The notes beneath the pieces are model-generated. The model saw only the letters and a list, made by a program, of their open reading frames with translations. It did no database searches and was not told where the DNA came from. The translations under genes were made by a program, and so were the position numbers. Positions 1,719 through 53,096 of a stretch of 64,000 bases of DNA are shown here, piece by piece. This DNA comes from Planctomycetia bacterium. GTDB lineage: Bacteria; Planctomycetota; Planctomycetia; Pirellulales; UBA1268. The stretch spans positions 1,751 through 65,750 of the forward strand of contig JBJTOU010000053.1 in NCBI GenBank assembly GCA_046074725.1, in the 5' to 3' direction. Within the stretch, counting starts at the first letter, position 1. Each line of letters starts with the position of its first letter.

Positions 1719-3451
1719 CAGGCAAACATCCCGTGAAGAAACCAGACTCCGTCGCGAAGCCGGCGAAAAAGCCAATACATCCCCCCCGTTTCCGTCTCGA
1801 TGACGTAGTAATCACGTCGGACGCAGGGCCCCCGCCACCAGGCCGTCTCGATCCGCTCCGGACCATGGGCCCGGGCGACCTGGTGCGTTTCGGAATTCCA
1901 GCGAAATCGCAGCGGCGGCCCGGCATCGACCGACGACAGGCTGCCGCCCGTCGCGGGCACCACCGACACCGTTTCCAGTCGGATCGGCCGCGGCAGCATC
2001 CACACCGGCCGCCGGCCCGCAGCCTTTCCGCCACCACGCGATGCAGAGGACGACGACGCGGAAGACCTCGTGCCGGCGGGCACCCCCACCCAGGCATGCT
2101 CCGGCTGGGCATCGATCACCGGCTGCGGCTCGAATACGGCGCCTCGCCCGAGCCGGCCGGCCAGCCGATCGAGCAGCATGGGCACGTGCAATGCTCGGTC
2201 CTCGGCTGCGTCGCCATCGAGCCCGCTGAAAAGCACCCGCTGCCGGCAGCCGACAACCGCCACGGAAATCACCTCCACGGCGATGCTCTCGATTTCGCGT
2301 GGCATCCGCAGCCTTGCCAGCCGCAGCCGCACGAGCTCCACGAGATGCCCTGCCGAGACGCTCGGACGAAATACGCCGACATCGACCACCACGGGCGCAG
2401 ACGACACGGCCGCCCGCCCCGGATCAAATCGCACCTGCAGCGACGCGATGCCCTTGCCCTGCGCGACCACACCCGCCACGCATGCCCCCACGAGGCACTC
2501 GAGAATCGCCACGATCATCTCCTCCCCTCCATCACGGAGCGAGACGGGAAGCTCAAAGTCGTGAACCGCCTGCGGCAGTTCGGTGGTGGACGATGGCTGG
2601 AGCGGTTCGACGAGCGTGCCGCGGAATTCCGCAAGCCGACGCTCGAGCAACGGCCCGAACCGCGACGCCAGACTCTTCCGCGGAAGACGGAGCAGATCAC
2701 CGATCGACTCGATACCGACGTCACCGACCTCGGCCCGGGTACGGTCATCCAGACGCAATGCCGCCACGGGCAGGTGGGCCAGCGACCGTGAGTCGCCCCT
2801 GGAGACGACCGCCCACCGCCGAGGCCGCCGCCTTCGCACGTCGCGTTCGAAGGGCGTCGCGCCCATCAAAGCCGAAGCACGCTCCGGAGCCGCTTCCCCC
2901 CGCGCCAGCAGATGCGTGAAATGGGCGGCAGCCCAGGCGGCGCCGGGCGTATCGGCGATCGCCACACGGGCGTGGATGCCGCGGGATGCGAGTGTCCAGG
3001 CTGCCGTACGGACCAATGGCTCCTCACCGCCGAAGAAGCCGGCTGTGTTGGTGACATCGAGCATCAGGCATTCGGGCTGGCTTTCCGGATGCGACGGTGG
3101 CTCCATCGCCACGATCGGCGCAAAACGACGGCACCATCGCGACAACGTCTCCAACGCCATCCGGTCTGCACACGGATCATCGTGCTCGACGACGGCTGCC
3201 TGGCAGGCACGGGAACCATGTTCGAGCGACAGCACGGCCATCGCCTCGGCCAACGAAATCCCATCCGGAATTTTCGCCATCGCACGCCGACGGCCGGCGT
3301 GCGACTGCTGCGCCGCCTGCGACCACAGCCACGACACCACCCGCATCACGCCGCGGCCTTCACGGCGGCAGACGAAGACGGGCAGGAATCGCCACTCGGG
3401 ATGCTCGAGCAGACGTCGCTGCACAGGCCATCTCGGCAGCCAGATCGTCAT
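1718..3451 (-). CDS. imuB: ImuB, Y-family-polymerase-like subunit of the imuA-imuB-dnaE2 mutagenesis cassette
   Basis: ORF 1718..3709 contains MTIWLPRWPVQRRLLEHPEWRFLPVFV..., a typical ImuB N-terminus. ATG 3451 forms an ATGA overlap with the imuA stop at 3448-3450. An alternative ATG is at 3463 (MPRIMTIW). The 663-aa track version runs back into imuA and is probably too long. Confidence 0.85.
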   Translation of the reverse strand: MTIWLPRWPVQRRLLEHPEWRFLPVFVCRREGRGVMRVVSWLWSQAAQQSHAGRRRAMAKIPDGISLAEAMAVLSLEHGSRACQAAVVEHDDPCADRMALETLSRWCRRFAPIVAMEPPSHPESQPECLMLDVTNTAGFFGGEEPLVRTAAWTLASRGIHARVAIADTPGAAWAAAHFTHLLARGEAAPERASALMGATPFERDVRRRRPRRWAVVSRGDSRSLAHLPVAALRLDDRTRAEVGDVGIESIGDLLRLPRKSLASRFGPLLERRLAEFRGTLVEPLQPSSTTELPQAVHDFELPVSLRDGGEEMIVAILECLVGACVAGVVAQGKGIASLQVRFDPGRAAVSSAPVVVDVGVFRPSVSAGHLVELVRLRLARLRMPREIESIAVEVISVAVVGCRQRVLFSGLDGDAAEDRALHVPMLLDRLAGRLGRGAVFEPQPVIDAQPEHAWVGVPAGTRSSASSSSASRGGGKAAGRRPVWMLPRPIRLETVSVVPATGGSLSSVDAGPPLRFRWNSETHQVARAHGPERIETAWWRGPCVRRDYYVIETETGGMYWLFRRLRDGVWFLHGMFA

Positions 3452-8648: not shown

Positions 8649-9635
8649 ATGCATTCTTCCCAACGCATCGTGCTCTGCTATCCCGTCGAGCCCCGTCACC
8701 TGGCTGCGATCCGCGCCGCCGCCCCCGAGGCGACGGTCGTCGATGCCGGCCAGGAACGGATCGCCGACGAACTCCCCACGGCCGACATCTACTGCGGCCA
8801 TGCGAAGGTGCCGGTTCCGTGGAAGTCGATCGTCGCCGGTGGTCGTCTCCGCTGGATTCAATCGTCTGCCGCAGGCCTCGATCATTGTCTCGTGCCCGAG
8901 GTGGTCGCCTCCGACATCGTCGTCACGAGCGCCTCGGGCGTGCTCGCCGACCAAGTGGCAGAGCACGCGCTCGGGTTGGCGATCGCATGCACCCGCCGGC
9001 TCCCCCTGTTCTTCGACCAACAACGTCGCAGGGAGTTCGTGCGGCGACCCACGCGGGATCTCACCGGCGCCACGATCGGCATCGTGGGGATGGGTGGCGT
9101 CGGCCGGCGGCTCGTCGAAGTGCTCGCCCCGTTCCGGGTGCGGATCCTGGCCACCGACTGGTTTCCGAGGGACAAGCCGCGCGACGTCGAGTTTCTTGGG
9201 CCTCCGGAGAGCCTACCGTCACTGCTCGAGCAGGCCGACCTGCTCTTTCTTTGCGTTCCGCTCACGCTGAACACCCGTGGCATGATCGATGCCGCGGCGT
9301 TGGCACGGATGAAGCGTGGCAGCATCCTCGTGAACATGGCCCGCGGCCCCCTCATCGACGAGGACGCCCTCGTCGATGCGTTGGAACACGGGCACCTCGA
9401 CATGGCGGCGCTCGACGTGACCCCCGACGAACCGCCCAAGCCGACGAGCCGCCTCTGGACGGCGCCCCGGCTCATCATCACGCCGCACGTCGCGGGCCAG
9501 GCGGCGCGCCGGATTGATGCAATGACCGAATTCTTCTGCGACAATCTCCGAAGGTACCGTTCCGGACGGTCCCTGCGAAACCAGGTCGACAAGCGGCTCG
9601 GCTTTCCGGAGCCGACCACCGAAGCCACAACATGA
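8649..9635 (+). CDS. D-isomer-specific 2-hydroxyacid dehydrogenase family protein
   Basis: ATG 8649 (MHSSQRIVLCYP). NAD fold GATIGIVGMGGVGRRL. Also ARGPLIDEDALVDALEHGHLDMAALDVTPDEP and ITPHVAG. The part of the track ORF upstream of 8649 is antisense to the DoxX gene. Confidence 0.85.
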   Translation: MHSSQRIVLCYPVEPRHLAAIRAAAPEATVVDAGQERIADELPTADIYCGHAKVPVPWKSIVAGGRLRWIQSSAAGLDHCLVPEVVASDIVVTSASGVLADQVAEHALGLAIACTRRLPLFFDQQRRREFVRRPTRDLTGATIGIVGMGGVGRRLVEVLAPFRVRILATDWFPRDKPRDVEFLGPPESLPSLLEQADLLFLCVPLTLNTRGMIDAAALARMKRGSILVNMARGPLIDEDALVDALEHGHLDMAALDVTPDEPPKPTSRLWTAPRLIITPHVAGQAARRIDAMTEFFCDNLRRYRSGRSLRNQVDKRLGFPEPTTEATT

Positions 9636-10756
9636 CTCCCTCCGAAGACTCCTTCTCGACCGCGATTTTCCAGGACGACCGCCCCACGATCTCGTGCGGC
9701 AGCGAGGTCGTGATCCGGTGTCCCGACGAACTGCTCGCACGCTACGGCGAGATTCTCGAGGCTGGCCGTCTCAATTGGACGGAATACCACAACCTCATGC
9801 GGCGGCTGGGGTCGGGGGGGCAGGGCGTGGTCTATCTGACCACCCGCCGAGGCACCGACAACTTCAGCCTTCCGGTGGCACTCAAAATCTTCTCGCCCGA
9901 GCGGTACGAGTCGGAGGCGCACTACGACGAGGCGATGGGCCGGATCGCGGCGGTGGCCTCGAGGGTCGCCCAGATCCAGCAGGACAATCTGATCGATGTT
10001 CAGAACTTCGTCGAGCAGCGGCGGATCCGAATCATGGAGATGGAGTGGATCGACGGATACGACCTCTCGCGTCTGCTCGCCCCCGAACTGCTCGATCGCA
10101 CGCGGGCCAGCGTCAACGAAGACCGCTGGAAGTATCTCAACAACGTGATCGTCACCGCCGGCCCCCGGCAGTCACGGCTGAAGCCGGGCGTCGCGATCTC
10201 GATCGTCCGCGAGTGCCTGGCCGCCCTCGCCGCGCTCCACCGGGAGGGGATCGTGCATGGCGACGTCAAGAGCGCCAACATCATGGTGAAGCGGACGGGC
10301 AACGCGAAGATCATCGACATCGGCTCGGCGATCGCCCTGGACGACATGCCCCCCAACCGGACCTGCACCCCAGCCTACGCGGCCCCCGAGGTGCTCGAGG
10401 GCCGCGAGAACACCCCCCGATCCGATCTCGCGAGCCTCGGCTACGTGCTCATCGAAATGCTCTCGGGGCAGCCCCCCTTCGCCGGCCTGCAGTCGTACCG
10501 CGACCTGCTCGAGGCGAAGCGGTCGCTCGCCCACCGCCTCCCACAACTTCTCCCGGCGGAGGTCGCGGTGAACGAGCTCTTGATGAGTTTTGTGCGAGGC
10601 ATGATCGCGGCCGACCCAGCCAAGCGATTTCCGAGCGCCGAGGACGCCGACCTTCTCAAGGAGGGGGCCGCCAGCTTCCACCGCCAGTTGATCGTGGGAG
10701 GGCTGGCGAGCGAATACGAAAACGAAATCCGAGCCTGGCTGGAGGAGCTGGATTAG
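9632..10756 (+). CDS. Ser/Thr protein kinase, soluble, with variant catalytic motifs
   Basis: G-loop LGSGGQGVVYL, VALKIF, catalytic loop HREGIVHGDVKSANIM, IIDIGSA, TPAYAAPEVLEG. ATG 9632 overlaps the upstream TGA (ATGA). Confidence 0.85.
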   Translation: MTPSEDSFSTAIFQDDRPTISCGSEVVIRCPDELLARYGEILEAGRLNWTEYHNLMRRLGSGGQGVVYLTTRRGTDNFSLPVALKIFSPERYESEAHYDEAMGRIAAVASRVAQIQQDNLIDVQNFVEQRRIRIMEMEWIDGYDLSRLLAPELLDRTRASVNEDRWKYLNNVIVTAGPRQSRLKPGVAISIVRECLAALAALHREGIVHGDVKSANIMVKRTGNAKIIDIGSAIALDDMPPNRTCTPAYAAPEVLEGRENTPRSDLASLGYVLIEMLSGQPPFAGLQSYRDLLEAKRSLAHRLPQLLPAEVAVNELLMSFVRGMIAADPAKRFPSAEDADLLKEGAASFHRQLIVGGLASEYENEIRAWLEELD

Positions 10757-10923
10757 ATCGCACCCCAGATAGCTGTAGCGACGATCTGACAAGCTGAGAA
10801 AGGTAGGAGAGGGGGTCGGCGAATGCTCGAGGAGCGTTGGGCGTATCCTCGCCCCGCGACAATCCGCAGGACCGCCCCGCGGTGACTTTTGCCGCCCCCG
10901 AGCCGGCGATACACGTAGGCCGG
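10757..10923 (+). repeat. Copy 1 of a ~170-nt dispersed intergenic element (sense orientation relative to the kinase gene)
   Basis: Hand alignment to the reverse complement of 31087-31257 gives roughly 90% identity, with about a dozen substitutions and one 4-nt indel. It starts directly after the TAG stop. It contains the hairpin ACCGC-CCC-GCGGT followed by GACTTTTGCC (10871-10893). Confidence 0.85.
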
Positions 10924-10938
10924 CGACATGTCGACGCC

Positions 10939-11769
10939 TCAGCGTGACGTCGTGCGCCCCAGCCGCCTGTAGACCGCGGCGATCAATGCCGTGGTGCCGC
11001 GCGGGGCCAGCCGCTTGAGCCGCCAGAGGGATCGTGCGGTGCGACCGACGACCACGTAGCGTCGATCGCGATCGATGGCACGAACGACGCGGGCCGCGAC
11101 GGCGTCGCTCGTCCAACGAGCCGCGCCCATGCGCCGGCGAGCCTCGTGGGATTCGAGTTCGGCCGAAAAGTGCCACGTGTCGAGCAGCCCCGATCGGAAG
11201 AAGCCGGGGCAGACGACCGTCACGCCGGGCCGGCGTCGGACGCACTCGGCGGCGATCGCATCCGAGAGCGCGATCACGCCCGCCTTGCTCGCCGAATACG
11301 CGGCCATCGACGGGGGAGCGATGATGCCGGCGATCGAAGCGACATTGACCACGTGCGAACGGCTCGGGTGTTCCCTGAGCCACGGAAGGAACGTCTCGCA
11401 GCCGAGGGCGGTCCCGAGAAGATTGGTGTCGAGAACCCGGCGCCAGTGACTTTCCGGGAGCCTGCCGACCTCGCCCGTGGCGCCAACGCCGGCGCAGTTG
11501 ACGAGCAGTTCGAGCGTCGGCCAATCGTTTCGAAGCCGATCATGCACCACCCTCCAGTGGGATGGCTCACGGACATCGAGCGCGAAGGGGATGCCATCCC
11601 CTCCACGACGATCGACCTCCACCCGCACCGCCTCGAGACGGGCCTCGTCGAGATCGGTCAGGCAGATCCGCCATCCCGCGTCGGCCAGTTCCAGGGCGAT
11701 CGCCCGACCCAGGCCGCTCGCGGCACCGGTGACAATCGCCGCGCCCCTCTGCCAGTGCATACGGCCCAT
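10939..11769 (-). CDS. Short-chain dehydrogenase/reductase (SDR) family oxidoreductase
   Basis: AAIVTGAASGLGRAIALEL, NCAG, SMAAYSASKAG. ATG 11769 (MGRMHWQRG) was chosen because the longer track ORF would overlap the tRNA. Confidence 0.85.
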   Translation of the reverse strand: MGRMHWQRGAAIVTGAASGLGRAIALELADAGWRICLTDLDEARLEAVRVEVDRRGGDGIPFALDVREPSHWRVVHDRLRNDWPTLELLVNCAGVGATGEVGRLPESHWRRVLDTNLLGTALGCETFLPWLREHPSRSHVVNVASIAGIIAPPSMAAYSASKAGVIALSDAIAAECVRRRPGVTVVCPGFFRSGLLDTWHFSAELESHEARRRMGAARWTSDAVAARVVRAIDRDRRYVVVGRTARSLWRLKRLAPRGTTALIAAVYRRLGRTTSR

Positions 11770-11789
11770 GAAACGATCGGGGAGAAAAG

Positions 11790-11863
11790 CGAGGGTGACG
11801 GGACTCGAACCCGCGGCCTCCAACGTGACAGGCTGGCGCTCTAACCAACTGAGCTACACCCCC
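11790..11863 (-). tRNA. tRNA-Asp (anticodon GTC), CCA not encoded
   Basis: The minus strand reads GGGGGTGTAGCTCAGTTGGTTAGAGCGCCAGCCTGTCACGTTGGAGGCCGCGGGTTCGAGTCCCGTCACCCTCG. It folds as a cloverleaf: 7-bp acceptor with one GU pair, D arm GCTC/GAGC, anticodon loop CTGTCAC, and T arm GCGGG/CCCGT with TTCGAGT. Confidence 0.93.
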
Positions 11864-29180: not shown

Positions 29181-30206
29181 ATGCCATCCAGCCATTCCTA
29201 CCGTCCCTCACGAATCACCTCCCGTCGCTCCACTCGGTCCGCCACGACCGCTGCGACCAACGCCGCAACGCCCCGCGCTGGCCGCGGACGGTCCGAGGAG
29301 GATGGTCTCGAGCGGCTTCAAAAGGTGCTGGCGGCAGCCGGGCTCGGCAGCCGCCGCAGTTGTGAGGAATTGATCACGCAGGGCCGGGTCGAAGTCGATC
29401 GTCGGGTCGTGTCTGAACTGGGCGCCCGCGTCGATCCACGGAAACAGGAGATCCGGGTCGATGGTGAGCGGCTCCCCAATCCAAAGCGGGTCGTCTACAT
29501 GCTCAACAAGCCCGTCGGCACGGTCACGACGAACTACGACCCGTCGGGCCGACCACGCGTGGTCGATCTCGTGCCCGGCGACCAGCGGCTCTTTGCGATA
29601 GGCCGCCTCGACCGAATGAGCGAGGGCCTCATCCTCGTGACCAACGACGGCGAACTGGCCAATCTGCTGGCGCATCCCCGCTACGGGGTCGAAAAGAAAT
29701 ACCTCGTGCAGGTGGCCGGCGTACCGGGGCCCGACGTACTCGAGTCGCTTCGACGCGGCGTTCGGCTGGCCGAGGGCAGCGTGCATGCCAAGCGGGTCGA
29801 AGTGCGCTCCCAGCACAAGGACAGCACGGTGCTGGAGATGGTGCTCGACGAGGGCAAGAACCGGGAGATCCGTCGCATGCTCGCCCGGCTCGGGCACAAG
29901 GTGCATCAGCTCAAGCGAGTGGCCGTCGGTGCGCTCTCCCTCGGCAACGTGCTCCCCGGGCAGTGGCGGCAGCTGTCGTGGAGTGAGATCGAGTCGCTCC
30001 GGAAAGACGCCGAAGAGGCGGTTGGCCCACAGCGGCCGGGGCGGCGATCACCGCCCCGGGACCGCGCCGGGGTCGGCCCTGGCCGCCACGGCTCGAAACC
30101 GGGGCCCGGGGCACGATCCAGTCGGAGCGGAGCGAAACCGCCGCAGGCGGGTCAGCCCCGCCGGAGACGTCGGCCAGGAAAGGCATCGTCATGGCGGAAA
30201 CACTGA
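29181..30206 (+). CDS. rluB: Pseudouridine synthase, RsuA/RluB family, with an Arg/Gly/Pro-rich tail
   Basis: S4 domain LQKVLAAAGLGSRRSCEELITQGRVEVD. Catalytic region LFAIGRLDRMSEGLILVTNDGELAN. The track start at 29166 is GTG; the ATG is at 29181. Confidence 0.85.
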   Translation: MPSSHSYRPSRITSRRSTRSATTAATNAATPRAGRGRSEEDGLERLQKVLAAAGLGSRRSCEELITQGRVEVDRRVVSELGARVDPRKQEIRVDGERLPNPKRVVYMLNKPVGTVTTNYDPSGRPRVVDLVPGDQRLFAIGRLDRMSEGLILVTNDGELANLLAHPRYGVEKKYLVQVAGVPGPDVLESLRRGVRLAEGSVHAKRVEVRSQHKDSTVLEMVLDEGKNREIRRMLARLGHKVHQLKRVAVGALSLGNVLPGQWRQLSWSEIESLRKDAEEAVGPQRPGRRSPPRDRAGVGPGRHGSKPGPGARSSRSGAKPPQAGQPRRRRRPGKASSWRKH

Positions 30207-31063
30207 TTGACGCGGCATGTCCCGCCATCTGCTACGCCGACACGGCCTCGTATGCGACCGCCTCGATCGTGTCCCATGCCCGGGTCGCGGAGCGCACCTA
30301 TCGCCTCCGACTGAATTGCCCCGAGCTGGCAGGCCGCGCCCTGCCGGGCCAGTTCGCGATGATCCGCATCCCGCATCGCTTCGATCCGCTGCTGGCCCGC
30401 CCTCTGGCTGTCTACGATACCCATGCCGGCGGACAGCACGCCGACTTCCTCTACCTCGTCCACGGCAAGTTCACGACGGCTCTGAAGGATCTGCCTGTCG
30501 GTGAGGAACTTGTCGTCTGGGGACCGCTGGGCAACGGGTTCGACCCGCCCGCTGTCGATCATCTCGTGCTGGTTGCCGGCGGCATCGGCCAAACGGCGGT
30601 CCTGGCGCTCGGACGAGAACGGCTCGGCAACGCCTGCTACGGCAGCCCGGTCCGCAAGGCGCCGCACGCCAAGCGGGTCACCCTGTGCTGGGGGGCGAGG
30701 CACCAGGGCATGTTTGGAGATGTCGATGACTTCCGCCGTGCCGGCATCGACGTGCACCTTGCCACGCTCGATGGATCAGCCGGCCGAAAGGGAACCGTGG
30801 TCGATCTGCTCGGTGACGTCACCCGGGGCGATGAGTCGATGCGGATCGCCTGCTGCGGCCCGGAGCCGATGATGGAGGCCGTGACGAACTGGGCCCGTGG
30901 CCATGGTGTGCCGTGCGACGTGTCGCTCGAGGCGCCGATGGCCTGTGGCATCGGCATCTGCTTCACGTGCGTGGCAAAGGTTCGGGATGCCTCGGGCGGC
31001 TGGGACTACCGTCGCACCTGCATCGAAGGCCCCGTCTTCGACGGCACGATGATCGAGTGGTGA
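30191..31063 (+). CDS. pyrK: Dihydroorotate dehydrogenase electron-transfer subunit (PyrK-like)
   Basis: ALPGQFAMIRI, LVWGPLGNGF, LVAGGIGQTAV, and C-terminal 2Fe-2S cysteines MACGIGICFTCV. It overlaps the rluB end by 16 nt. Confidence 0.8.
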   Translation: MAETLIDAACPAICYADTASYATASIVSHARVAERTYRLRLNCPELAGRALPGQFAMIRIPHRFDPLLARPLAVYDTHAGGQHADFLYLVHGKFTTALKDLPVGEELVVWGPLGNGFDPPAVDHLVLVAGGIGQTAVLALGRERLGNACYGSPVRKAPHAKRVTLCWGARHQGMFGDVDDFRRAGIDVHLATLDGSAGRKGTVVDLLGDVTRGDESMRIACCGPEPMMEAVTNWARGHGVPCDVSLEAPMACGIGICFTCVAKVRDASGGWDYRRTCIEGPVFDGTMIEW

Positions 31064-31086
31064 CGATCTCGGCGGCTAGATCGCAT

Positions 31087-31257
31087 CCGGCCTACGTGTA
31101 TGGCCGGCTCGGGGGCGGCAAAAGTCGCCGATGGGCGGTCCTGCGGATTGTCGCGGGGCGAGGATACGCCCAACGCTCCTCGAGCGTTCGCCGACCCCCT
31201 CGCCTACCTTTCTCAGTCAGTTTGTCAGATTGTCGCTAGAGCGATCTGGAGTGCGTT
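31087..31257 (-). repeat. Copy 2 of the ~170-nt dispersed element (sense orientation relative to rpsT)
   Basis: Its reverse complement aligns to 10757-10923 at roughly 90% identity. It ends against the rpsT stop codon (TAG, 31258-31260). Internal hairpins are at 31087-31107 (CCGGCC N9 GGCCGG), 31126-31137 and 31172-31188 (AACGCTC CTC GAGCGTT). Confidence 0.85.
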
Positions 31258-31524
31258 CTACCCCTTGGCCGCCTTCAGGCGGGCGGAGAGGCGGGACTTG
31301 ATCCGGGCCGCTCGATTCTTGTGAATCCTGTTCTTGCTGGCGGCCTGGTCGGCTTTCTTGGCGACTGCCCGGAACTGCTCCGTCGCGGCGGAGACGTCAC
31401 CGGATGAAACTGACTGCAGCACTTTCCGTATCTGCTTCTTGATCTCAGACTTCGTGGAACGATTCCGCTCACGGTTCCGGAGGTTTTGGCGGTGACGTTT
31501 CTTTGCGCTGGCCGAGTGGGGCAT
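31258..31524 (-). CDS. rpsT: 30S ribosomal protein S20
   Basis: MPHSASAKKRHRQNLRNRERNRSTKSEIKKQIRKV... Confidence 0.92.
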   Translation of the reverse strand: MPHSASAKKRHRQNLRNRERNRSTKSEIKKQIRKVLQSVSSGDVSAATEQFRAVAKKADQAASKNRIHKNRAARIKSRLSARLKAAKG

Positions 31525-52171: not shown

Positions 52172-52648
52172 CTACTTCTTGACGGGCGTGAACTTGATCT
52201 TCTTGATCAGCTCGATCACCTGGCCATCCTTCCGGGTGCCCGATACCGCGGTGATCGCCCGGACGACGTTCTCGTAGTCGAGGCCGTAGTCGCAGTCGAG
52301 TTCGACTTCCGTATTCTCGGCCGGAGAGTCGGGCCCCCTCGCCGTCCCGACGACGTCCACGATCTTTACCTGCAGGTCGTCGAAATCGCGCACCGGCTGG
52401 CCGTTCATGATCAGGCCCGCGAGTTGCCCATTCGGGGCTGCGGACATCTTCAGACGAATCAACGTCACCATCTGGTCGTTCGGAGCAGCGGCGGCGGCCC
52501 CCAGTGGCATGCGGATGTCGAAGTCGCCCTCCGGTGTCACAACCTTCAGCGTGCACATGAAAAACGACATCAATTGAAACACGACGTCGATCATCGGCGT
52601 CATGTCGACGGCCACCTTGTCGCCGAGTTCCGACTTCCTACGGGCCAT
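52172..52648 (-). CDS. exbD: ExbD/TolR family biopolymer transport protein
   Basis: MARRKSELGDKVAVDMTPMIDVVFQLMSFFM. ATG confirmed at 52646-52648. Confidence 0.85.
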   Translation of the reverse strand: MARRKSELGDKVAVDMTPMIDVVFQLMSFFMCTLKVVTPEGDFDIRMPLGAAAAAPNDQMVTLIRLKMSAAPNGQLAGLIMNGQPVRDFDDLQVKIVDVVGTARGPDSPAENTEVELDCDYGLDYENVVRAITAVSGTRKDGQVIELIKKIKFTPVKK

Positions 52649-52652
52649 GCGA

Positions 52653-53096
52653 TCACTGCCTTTCGTCGTACTGGGCCCGGAGCGCAAACTTCTCGAAGCC
52701 CTTGTCCTGGCAGGCTTTGATCAGTTCCTGTACCTCGCCCGTCTTGGCCCGGCCATCGGCCCGCACGATCACGGTCGCCTCGGCGGGCTCCCGGCCGGCC
52801 TCGATCAGAACCTGCTTCTCCCGCTCGAGATAGCCACCGATATTCGGGACTCGAACCATTTCGCCAGCGTAGATCACGGCACCGCCCTCGGTGACCTGCA
52901 GCGTGATCGGCTTCTCGACGGGCCCCTCCACCGGCTTGGCAAGCTGGCTCAGGGGGAGTTGGATCCGGTCATCCTGCTCGGCCTCGGAGAAGTTCATCAC
53001 GAACATGAAGAACGTTATCAACTGGAAGGTCATGTCGATCATCGGCGTCATGTCGATGTCGGTGTTCGACAGAGCACCATCACGCTTTCTGCCCAT
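52653..53096 (-). CDS. exbD: ExbD/TolR family biopolymer transport protein
   Basis: MGRKRDGALSNTDIDMTPMIDMTFQLITFFMFV...VIVRADGRAKTGEVQELIKACQ. Confidence 0.88.
   Translation of the reverse strand: MGRKRDGALSNTDIDMTPMIDMTFQLITFFMFVMNFSEAEQDDRIQLPLSQLAKPVEGPVEKPITLQVTEGGAVIYAGEMVRVPNIGGYLEREKQVLIEAGREPAEATVIVRADGRAKTGEVQELIKACQDKGFEKFALRAQYDERQ

Follow-up and report, generated by a model that had tools for sequence, protein, structure and literature searches.

A probable TA-targeting MITE family at stop codons of Pirellulales-type Planctomycetota, with a conserved central hairpin

The window analysed here, a stretch of planctomycete DNA of 64,000 nucleotides, contains two copies of a repeat that belongs to an apparently undescribed family of noncoding MITEs of planctomycete bacteria, the kind of element being itself well known. 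The reading that we favor, at a probability of roughly 0.78, is that of a TA-targeting MITE family of Pirellulales-type Planctomycetota that rebuilds a TAG where it lands on a stop codon and whose core, at lower confidence, may later have come under constraint.

In essence, the element would be mobilized in trans by a cut-and-paste DDE transposase, presumably of the IS630/Tc1-mariner type, that integrates at TA, favoring CTAG, and duplicates the TA. When the TA that is hit belongs to a TAG or TAA stop codon, an in-frame TAG would be rebuilt for a gene that reads in from either side, and the protein would be unchanged; surviving copies would concentrate on stop codons, these being among the few harmless targets in a TA-poor, coding-dense genome. 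After insertion, the ends would decay while the GC-rich central hairpin would be retained with compensatory changes. The core may serve as a 3'-end stem-loop between close convergent or tandem genes, by analogy with the REP, ERIC, and Correia elements; alternatively, it may be a DNA- or protein-recognition structure.

Such a mechanism would explain how copies of a dispersed repeat come to stand in one and the same register behind genes that are unrelated: where TA is scarce, genes are dense, and GC content is high, stop codons would be safe landing pads for a TA-targeting element that begins with G and ends with C. There are also consequences for the annotation of planctomycete MAGs, where repeats of this type interrupt assemblies, give rise to spurious small ORFs, and set the ends of genes. 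Furthermore, the question is raised of whether the choice between TGA and TAG/TAA as stop codon is shaped by elements of this kind.

The repeat pair in the window

The first-pass annotation had described 10757-10923 (+) as roughly 90% identical to the reverse complement of 31087-31257, with about a dozen substitutions and one 4-nt ACTG duplication in the second copy. Comparison by blastn bears this out, giving 91.1% identity over 169 columns (E 3e-65), with 12 substitutions and the one ACTG tandem duplication in copy 2, which is private to that copy and missing from all 39 other full-length family members in the alignment. Beyond the pair, blastn of the window returned nothing better than E 0.1, and a repeat search, which aligned 130 nt of the two copies without gaps at 95% complementarity, identified them as the sole substantial dispersed repeat of the 64 kb. 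A covariance model (R1), run over the window with filters off, found just these two copies, at 97.7 and 94.3 bits, the next match scoring 18.5.

The flanking genes had been called unrelated and both gaps convergent, and the Pfam domains agree. Copy 1 lies between a Ser/Thr kinase gene (Pkinase, 9632-10756, +) and an SDR gene (adh_short, 10939-11823, -), directly after the kinase TAG; copy 2, on the minus strand, lies directly after the rpsT TAG, between rpsT (Ribosomal_S20p, 31258-31524, -) and a PyrK-like gene (DHODB_Fe-S_bind, 30191-31063, +). Two limits of the pair required revision. The element had been taken to begin one base past the kinase TAG, but the family alignment starts at the TAG itself, so these bases belong to the repeat; and copy 2, previously ended at 31087, reaches 31076, where ATGCGATCTAG is its 3' inverted repeat. 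The parts of the two copies and the adjoining genes are as follows.

9632..10756, +: Ser/Thr protein kinase gene (Pfam Pkinase), its TAG forming the 5' junction of copy 1
10754..10768, +: copy 1, 5' terminal inverted repeat TAGATCGCACCCCAG (family alignment boundaries, kinase ORF); its first three bases, 10754-10756, are the kinase stop codon, and the TA at 10754-10755 is the presumed target duplication
10769..10801, +: copy 1, 5' arm of the subfamily A type (GCTGTAGCGACGATCTGACAA...) (alignment)
10802..10908, +: copy 1, conserved central core, long form of 107 nt, an imperfect rod-like hairpin closed by GGGGG.CGGCGAA/TTTGCCG.CCCCC with the apex loop TATCCT (R1 94.3 bits, E 3.6e-18; covariation counts)
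10863..10883, +: copy 1, optional 21-nt side hairpin P4, lineage-specific variant TCCGCAGGACCGCCCCGCGGT (alignment)
10909-10923, +: copy 1, 3' arm (family alignment)
10924-10934, +: copy 1, degenerate 3' inverted repeat CGACATGTCGA (family alignment)
10939-10941: SDR stop codon, beyond copy 1
31061-31063: stop codon of the pyrK-like gene, 12 nt past the end of copy 2
31076..31101, -: copy 2, 3' arm and 3' inverted repeat (family alignment)
31076-31090, -: copy 2, intact 3' inverted repeat CCGGATGCGATCTAG, ending CTAG
31102..31208, -: copy 2, conserved central core, long form (R1 97.7 bits, E 6.7e-19)
31127-31147, -: copy 2, P4 insert
31209..31245, -: copy 2, 5' arm with the private ACTG tandem duplication (within 31212-31225)
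31246..31260, -: copy 2, 5' terminal inverted repeat TAGAACGCACTCCAG (family alignment); its TAG, 31258-31260, is the rpsT stop codon
31258..31524, -: rpsT (ribosomal protein S20; Ribosomal_S20p), its TAG forming the 5' junction of copy 2

Both inverted repeats are thus intact in copy 2, and the 3' one is lost in copy 1. An insert occurs at the P4 position in 17 of 51 distinct cores, and the variant TCCGCAGGACCGCCCCGCGGT is common to copy 1 and, in diverged form, copy 2 only. Since the two share this private version of the 21-nt hairpin, the comparison indicates amplification within the window's own lineage.

ORFs that cross the two copies have different starts and stops and share only the element-encoded peptide SRGEDTPNAPRAFADPL, exactly as first noted. 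One might therefore ask whether SRGEDTPNAPRAFADPL belongs to a small protein gene or, as with the Rickettsia palindromic elements, to a coding insert that stays in frame, and a reverse-strand frame does run open through the whole element in 14 of 40 copies, with the 21-nt insert keeping the frame. At ~70% GC, however, about a quarter of 70-codon frames are open by chance. No conserved ORF was found in the element: the starts and stops of the reverse-strand frame are inconsistent between copies, copies that are conserved in other respects differ in core length by +1, -1, +4, and -5 nt, so that the indels are not multiples of three, and no copy lies inside a called gene. A coding role is scarcely credible on these grounds.

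Two minor features of the window are recorded here. A 64-nt direct repeat of 78% identity (52545-52608 and 52993-53056, 448 nt apart) probably reflects adjacent paralogous genes. Close to copy 1, a tRNA (70 bits) at 11790-11863 (-) covers the initial 34 nt of the SDR gene's longest ORF, 10939-11823 (-). Because of this overlap, and because orthologous SDRs have 267-281 residues compared with 294 for the window ORF, the true SDR start probably lies further downstream.

Family members and their ends

The family was collected with an exact 23-mer from the longest identical block of the pair, followed by iterated nhmmer. The 23-mer occurs at 61 loci in about 14 species-representative MAGs, and nhmmer recovered 71 copies in the window and these loci, or 76 after the addition of syntenic loci, with just two of them in the window. 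Nearly all carrier MAGs are labelled Planctomycetota, Pirellulales, or Planctomycetia, metagenome contigs also carry copies, and up to about 18 copies are present in one incomplete MAG. The neighboring proteins are unrelated between copies in all-against-all BLASTP. The elements are 70% GC and span 160-186 nt, with a short form of ~160 nt and a long form of ~182 nt that includes the 21-nt extra hairpin, and they fall into two main subfamilies distinguished by their arms.

A few carriers (L004-L058, L043) are labelled Candidatus Kuenenia, Chitinophagaceae, or Acidimicrobiales, their loci having a GC content of 60-69%. Members of the DUF1501 family are expanded in Planctomycetes, and the contig of L043, labelled 'Acidimicrobiales', encodes a DUF1501 protein, which makes that label doubtful; transfer across phyla was accordingly rejected for this locus. 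The taxonomic labels or the binning of the Kuenenia, Chitinophagaceae, and Acidimicrobiales carriers look unreliable.

The ends of the element were defined by alignment of 41 full-length copies with 30-nt flanks. Conservation begins and ends abruptly, at C-TAGAnCGCATnCCGG on the left and CCGGATGCGnTCTA-G on the right, and these two sequences constitute terminal inverted repeats of ~16 bp (search pattern TA-GAnCGCATnCCGG). The flanking TA lies in the context Y-TA-R, the outside base being C or T on the left in 36 of 41 copies and G or A on the right in 35 of 41. When the left and right 4-mers within each copy are compared, only TA agrees; the outer bases do not match. A duplication of 4 bp (YTAR, as in IS5-like elements) or of 3 bp (TAG) can be set aside, since neither the first nor the last base of the two 4-mers co-varies. 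As only TA is common to both sides, the flanks in their CTAG-like target have the likely signature of a 2-bp TA duplication. Judged by these sequence features, the element is a MITE with a presumed TA target duplication, as in IS630/Tc1-mariner. The first-pass annotation had offered a REP/MITE-like repeat among its candidate explanations and had looked to terminal inverted repeats and target-site duplications to decide the matter. The ~16-bp repeats and the TA on both flanks, together with the many dispersed copies, the subfamilies, and the filled and empty orthologous sites considered below, uphold that candidate.

Comparison with known elements is instructive. Bacterial MITEs are shorter than 200 bp and have inverted repeats, terminal TA, and a target duplication, and one of them, RUP, is linked to IS630-Spn1 (PMC2229807). 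RUP resembles the present family in being short and noncoding, with terminal inverted repeats, TA on both flanks, and many intergenic copies (PMC2229807), but it is 107 bp long and AT-rich, and its inverted repeats match those of a known IS. The family described here has ~160-182 nt, is 70% GC, is located at stop codons, and is more conserved in its core than toward its ends; the window and the fetched loci yielded no parent IS for it. The presumed TA target duplication and cut-and-paste logic would be shared with Stowaway-type MITEs and with IS630/Tc1-mariner elements, which duplicate TA (PMC2170065). The title of Tenzen and Ohtsubo (1991), as it stands in the reference list of PMC2170065, gives the preference of IS630 as TA within CTAG, and so worded it matches the Y-TA-R flanks of the family. 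The assignment of the transposase to the IS630 type is drawn from this TA/CTAG signature and is to that extent putative.

The difference from the Stowaway and IS630 systems is that no transposase gene is linked to the copies in the window or the fetched loci. All-against-all BLASTP of the 722 called proteins from the window and fetched loci revealed no multi-copy transposase-like or RAYT-like gene near the copies. Nor did the window or the ~1 Mb of fetched loci contain an inverted-repeat pair at IS-like spacing; an apparent parent-IS pair in L035 proved to be a tRNA D-arm beside EF-Tu. The viral contigs, plasmids, and phages that were searched held no counterpart of the element.

A different mode of mobility is conceivable, in which the repeat would be a REP/REPIN-type element moved by a RAYT, an IS200/IS605-like tyrosine transposase, rather than by a DDE enzyme. 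GTAG-tagged REPs are, like this family, GC-rich palindromes downstream of genes; they are reported to occur in Planctomycetes, and their terminal TAG often supplies the stop codon of the ORF that they flank (PMC3733652). A conserved hairpin with decaying flanks would also resemble the maintenance of REPs. Against this, REPs measure 20-40 bp, carry GTAG at one end, and have neither a TA duplication nor 16-bp inverted repeats, whereas the present unit of ~160 nt has 16-bp inverted repeats, TA on both sides, and CTAG-type sequence at both ends: of 41 copies, 26 have C immediately ahead of the TAG, 10 have T, and 1 has G. Taken with the lack of a multi-copy RAYT-like gene adjoining any copy in the fetched loci, this renders a REPIN origin distinctly unlikely.

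Orthologous sites and the stop-codon register

Three orthologous sites carry the element in some lineages and lack it in others. The convergent pyrK/rpsT arrangement is kept in 68 fetched loci, in which the two genes usually lie 1-50 nt apart and the stop of rpsT is in most cases TGA. The gap is filled by the element in the window, in L062-64, and in L067, in the same orientation and with the rpsT TAG at the junction, and empty in L065, L066, L070, and most of the 68 syntenic loci. The arms of the L062 and L067 copies differ from those of the window copy at rpsT, and in a rough NJ tree the empty L066 nests among the filled loci; from these two observations, we infer at least two independent insertions at the rpsT stop codon. 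Other sequences also occupy this gap. In L065, it holds an ordinary 33-nt hairpin. An unrelated insert of ~140-180 nt is found in L080 (3401-3584) and L086 (3386-3528), starting exactly at the rpsT TAG (TAGCGA(T)CC..CTCACTGCCCGTGGATAAAGTCATCC...) and ending at the pyrK stop; it may represent a second stop-codon-targeting repeat family. L102 (2077-2261) contains about three tandem units of ~50 nt (…GGAACGGCCCGAAGGGTGCTTTGCAGAAATGGCTCCCGTCCCCATTT…) instead of the element.

The window kinase is 100% identical to a protein from a MAG entered at NCBI as 'Planctomycetia bacterium'. The kinase/SDR gap is empty in L149-151 (~90% amino acid identity), at 12-15 nt and with a TGA stop. The end of the kinase gene reads GAT TAG (Asp, stop) at 10751-10756 of the window and GAG TGA (Glu, stop) at 3120-3125 of the empty L149 and L150. 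In the more distant kinase relative L152/153, a rearranged, degenerate copy lies directly after a TAG stop. This copy (3102-3330) has lost its 5' arm almost wholly and carries an unrelated palindromic insertion of ~95 nt (GCAATTTC...GAAATTGC) in place of the apical hairpin. At both rpsT and the kinase gene, the stop of the empty relatives is TGA, a codon that contains no TA, and an ancestral TAG or TAA in the filled lineages is therefore an assumption.

A third site lies at the stop of a PMI-type gene. In L089, it is filled, reading CCG-TAG|ACCGTGCG, with a second TA after the element; in its nearest relative, L103, it is empty, the same CCG-TAG being followed by unrelated sequence, and the downstream flanks of the two are too diverged to align base-exactly. 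The presumed TA duplication is thus supported by the flank statistics and by this one filled/empty pair. L002 and L004 were rejected as a further clean pair, their gene ends being rearranged.

The relation of the family to gene ends was examined by calling genes from codon usage; the caller, for which the loci served as training set, recovered the window genes, rpsT among them. In 36 of 71 nonredundant copies, one of the element's ends overlaps the stop codon of a called gene, in about 12 cases the 5' end and in 28 the 3' end. Copies sit at gene 3' ends, the contexts being convergent for 27, tandem for 26, and divergent for 2 (chi-square p = 3e-5 versus equal quarters); within tandem gaps, orientation to transcription is unbiased (11 versus 15, p = 0.56). 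It had been remarked that both window copies stand in the same register after a TAG, in the manner of a shared 3'-UTR module, with the further thought that copies might always abut stops in one orientation. The register is genuine, but it is seen at either end of the element and whichever way the element points, and so appears to be a property of insertion rather than of a 3'-UTR. The body of the element has G as its first base and C as its last, so that the left junction reads TA-G and the right one C-TA, which is TAG when read from the opposite strand. The shared register arises because these G...C ends supply TAG at TA junctions.

Why stop codons should be favored is suggested by the composition of the window, which is 66% GC and 87% coding. 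TA occurs 577 times against 1814 expected from base composition, a 3-fold under-representation, and CTAG 10 times against 199, a 20-fold under-representation, two of the ten lying within copy 2. The window stop codons comprise 35 TGA, 10 TAG, and 3 TAA. Because TA and CTAG are rare and coding density is high, only a few TA sites would, we infer, tolerate an insertion, the TAG and TAA stop codons among them, where it regenerates the stop; surviving copies would therefore accumulate exactly on stop codons.

The placement of the copies also bears on the proposal, made at the outset, of a bidirectional intrinsic terminator cassette that is selected between convergent genes, the repeat arising by functional convergence or duplication. 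Half of the classified copies lie between convergent genes, and the hairpin in the empty gap of L065 occupies an equivalent position. A scan of both strands of both window copies, however, found no hairpin followed by a T-run, the only T-run (CTTTTG) falling inside the closing helix. Moreover, ~160 nt with inverted repeats are shared beside unrelated genes in many genomes, which is not convergence, and copies also occur in tandem and, rarely, divergent contexts. A terminator cassette is hence very unlikely, and this part of the first-pass annotation is not supported.

The central hairpin

Consensus identity rises steeply toward the middle of the element, from 65-72% in the inverted repeats through 80-90% in the inner arms to 97-98% in the core outside the search 23-mer (per subfamily consensus). 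This core of 86-107 nt, conserved far above the inverted repeats, is the reverse of the pattern for an actively transposing MITE family. Considered as a helix, the inverted repeats are 62.3% paired compared with 62.4% after shuffling, and 275 of 500 shuffles reach the value; they pair no better than shuffles, so each end decays on its own, like those of dead copies of a transposon. The rod fold of the core, in contrast, is 93% paired, with nine pairs (27 cells) changed on both sides, a result reached by none of 500 shuffles, and slid controls of the fold gave 39-56% pairing.

Below the apical hairpin, GGGCG-TATCCT-CGCCC, which may be accompanied by the optional side hairpin, the inner helix is broken by two tandem G.A/A.G mismatches around a G-C pair. 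The closing helix exists as GGGGG/CCCCC, GAGGG/CCCTC, GGAGG/CCTCC, and GGGAGGG/CCCTCCC and is lengthened on both strands in L040/L046. Other variants turn CGGCG/TGCCG into CGGTG/CACCG, change the pair G33-C64 to C-G in five copies and C30-G88 to U-A in two, and replace the apical hairpin by unrelated hairpins (L055:441, L089:852). A competing fold that forms a local AACGCTC/GAGCGTT hairpin has less support: its pair 26-38 is broken in eight sequences, in which the rod partner compensates.

Most copies were ascertained by the core 23-mer, which inflates core conservation, and those found without it are more diverged in the core (L067 and L089 about 81-84% identical, L152 rearranged). This bias is real, yet it cannot explain the conservation of the core, because a neutral 23-mer at the divergence of the arms would survive in about one copy in 1000. 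Between the orthologous L062 and L067, furthermore, the core is 84% identical, compared with 61% at pyrK third codon positions. That the ends decay while the central hairpin stays conserved with compensatory changes suggests, at lower confidence than the insertion model, that the core is under secondary constraint. Its strand asymmetry is modest, with 67 G.U pairs on the named strand and 13 on the other, mostly from one fixed pair, and conflicts with the lack of orientation bias, so the constraint may act at the level of RNA, of folded single-stranded DNA, or of the DNA duplex.

A structured core raises the possibility that the whole element is primarily a structured ncRNA (an sRNA gene, or a 3'-UTR motif acting in cis) that is multi-copy by chance and for which the inverted repeats form the closing stem. 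Compensatory changes at the nine core pairs, the apical hairpin swaps and two-strand helix lengthening, the fixed G.U pair and tandem G.A/A.G mismatches found on one strand only, and the excess of core identity over pyrK third positions would all argue for such an RNA. The terminal stem is without covariation, however, single-sequence folding z-scores are weak (-1.4 and -2.4), and with random orientation and more stops at the 3' end, the strand bearing the G.U and G.A pairs would often not be co-transcribed. Rfam gave no match even at E<=10, the best sub-threshold score for copy 1 being that of mir-207, at 16.9 bits against a threshold of 88, and only tRNAs passed the gathering threshold in the window and in L017, L041, L042, and L056. 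A sigma-70-like promoter scan found none in either window copy, both of which are also free of terminator-like sites. A transposon, by contrast, would account for both the TA flanks and the filled and empty states of orthologous sites. We therefore consider an ncRNA origin unlikely. What survives of the sRNA or 3'-UTR module first envisaged is a secondary role, with which the conserved, compensating core is compatible; the Rfam search and an insertion-derived register speak against the remainder.

Within the favored MITE reading, a more specific proposal for the core can be made only tentatively, and we hold it to be less probable than its converse. The core may have been exapted, or may be a passenger module of different mobile shells, kept by purifying selection across Pirellulales well beyond the decay of the transposon ends, as a structured RNA or a folded-DNA protein-binding element of a new class, at gene 3' ends. 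Such a module would comprise the rod hairpin with its two tandem G.A/A.G mismatches and fixed G.U pair, a variable apical hairpin, and the optional side hairpin. The proposal fits with three observations: the core is shared by three or more unrelated arm sets, among them a separate repeat of ~500 nt with inverted repeats of its own; the same stops appear to have received insertions independently; and it is the TGA-ending orthologs that stay empty. Should the core turn out to have a function, we would have a case of a structured module, borne by a MITE, that was domesticated at the 3' ends of genes in a phylum with little-explored RNA biology.

Precedents come from the Correia/NEMIS elements of Neisseria and the ERIC elements of enterobacteria and Yersinia, which are likewise inverted-repeat elements, of 100-170 bp, with terminal TA; they are co-transcribed with their neighbors, and their long RNA hairpins affect mRNA processing or stability (PMC2229807, PMC3733652). 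They belong to another phylum and are unrelated in sequence, and systematic supply of stop codons is no described hallmark of theirs. Effects at the RNA level, involving RNase III and RNase E, are demonstrated for them, whereas here they are a proposed analogy.

The core is also met in a larger setting. Together with the 3' arm, it lies inside a repeat of ~500 nt that has inverted repeats of its own (GGCAATCCTGTTCGGCAC...GTGCCGAACAGGATTGCC) and was without an Rfam match in L017, L041, L042, and L056. Its copies are at L017:4323-4830, L041:470-990, L042:5860-6380, and L056:3180-3700, two of them in one MAG.
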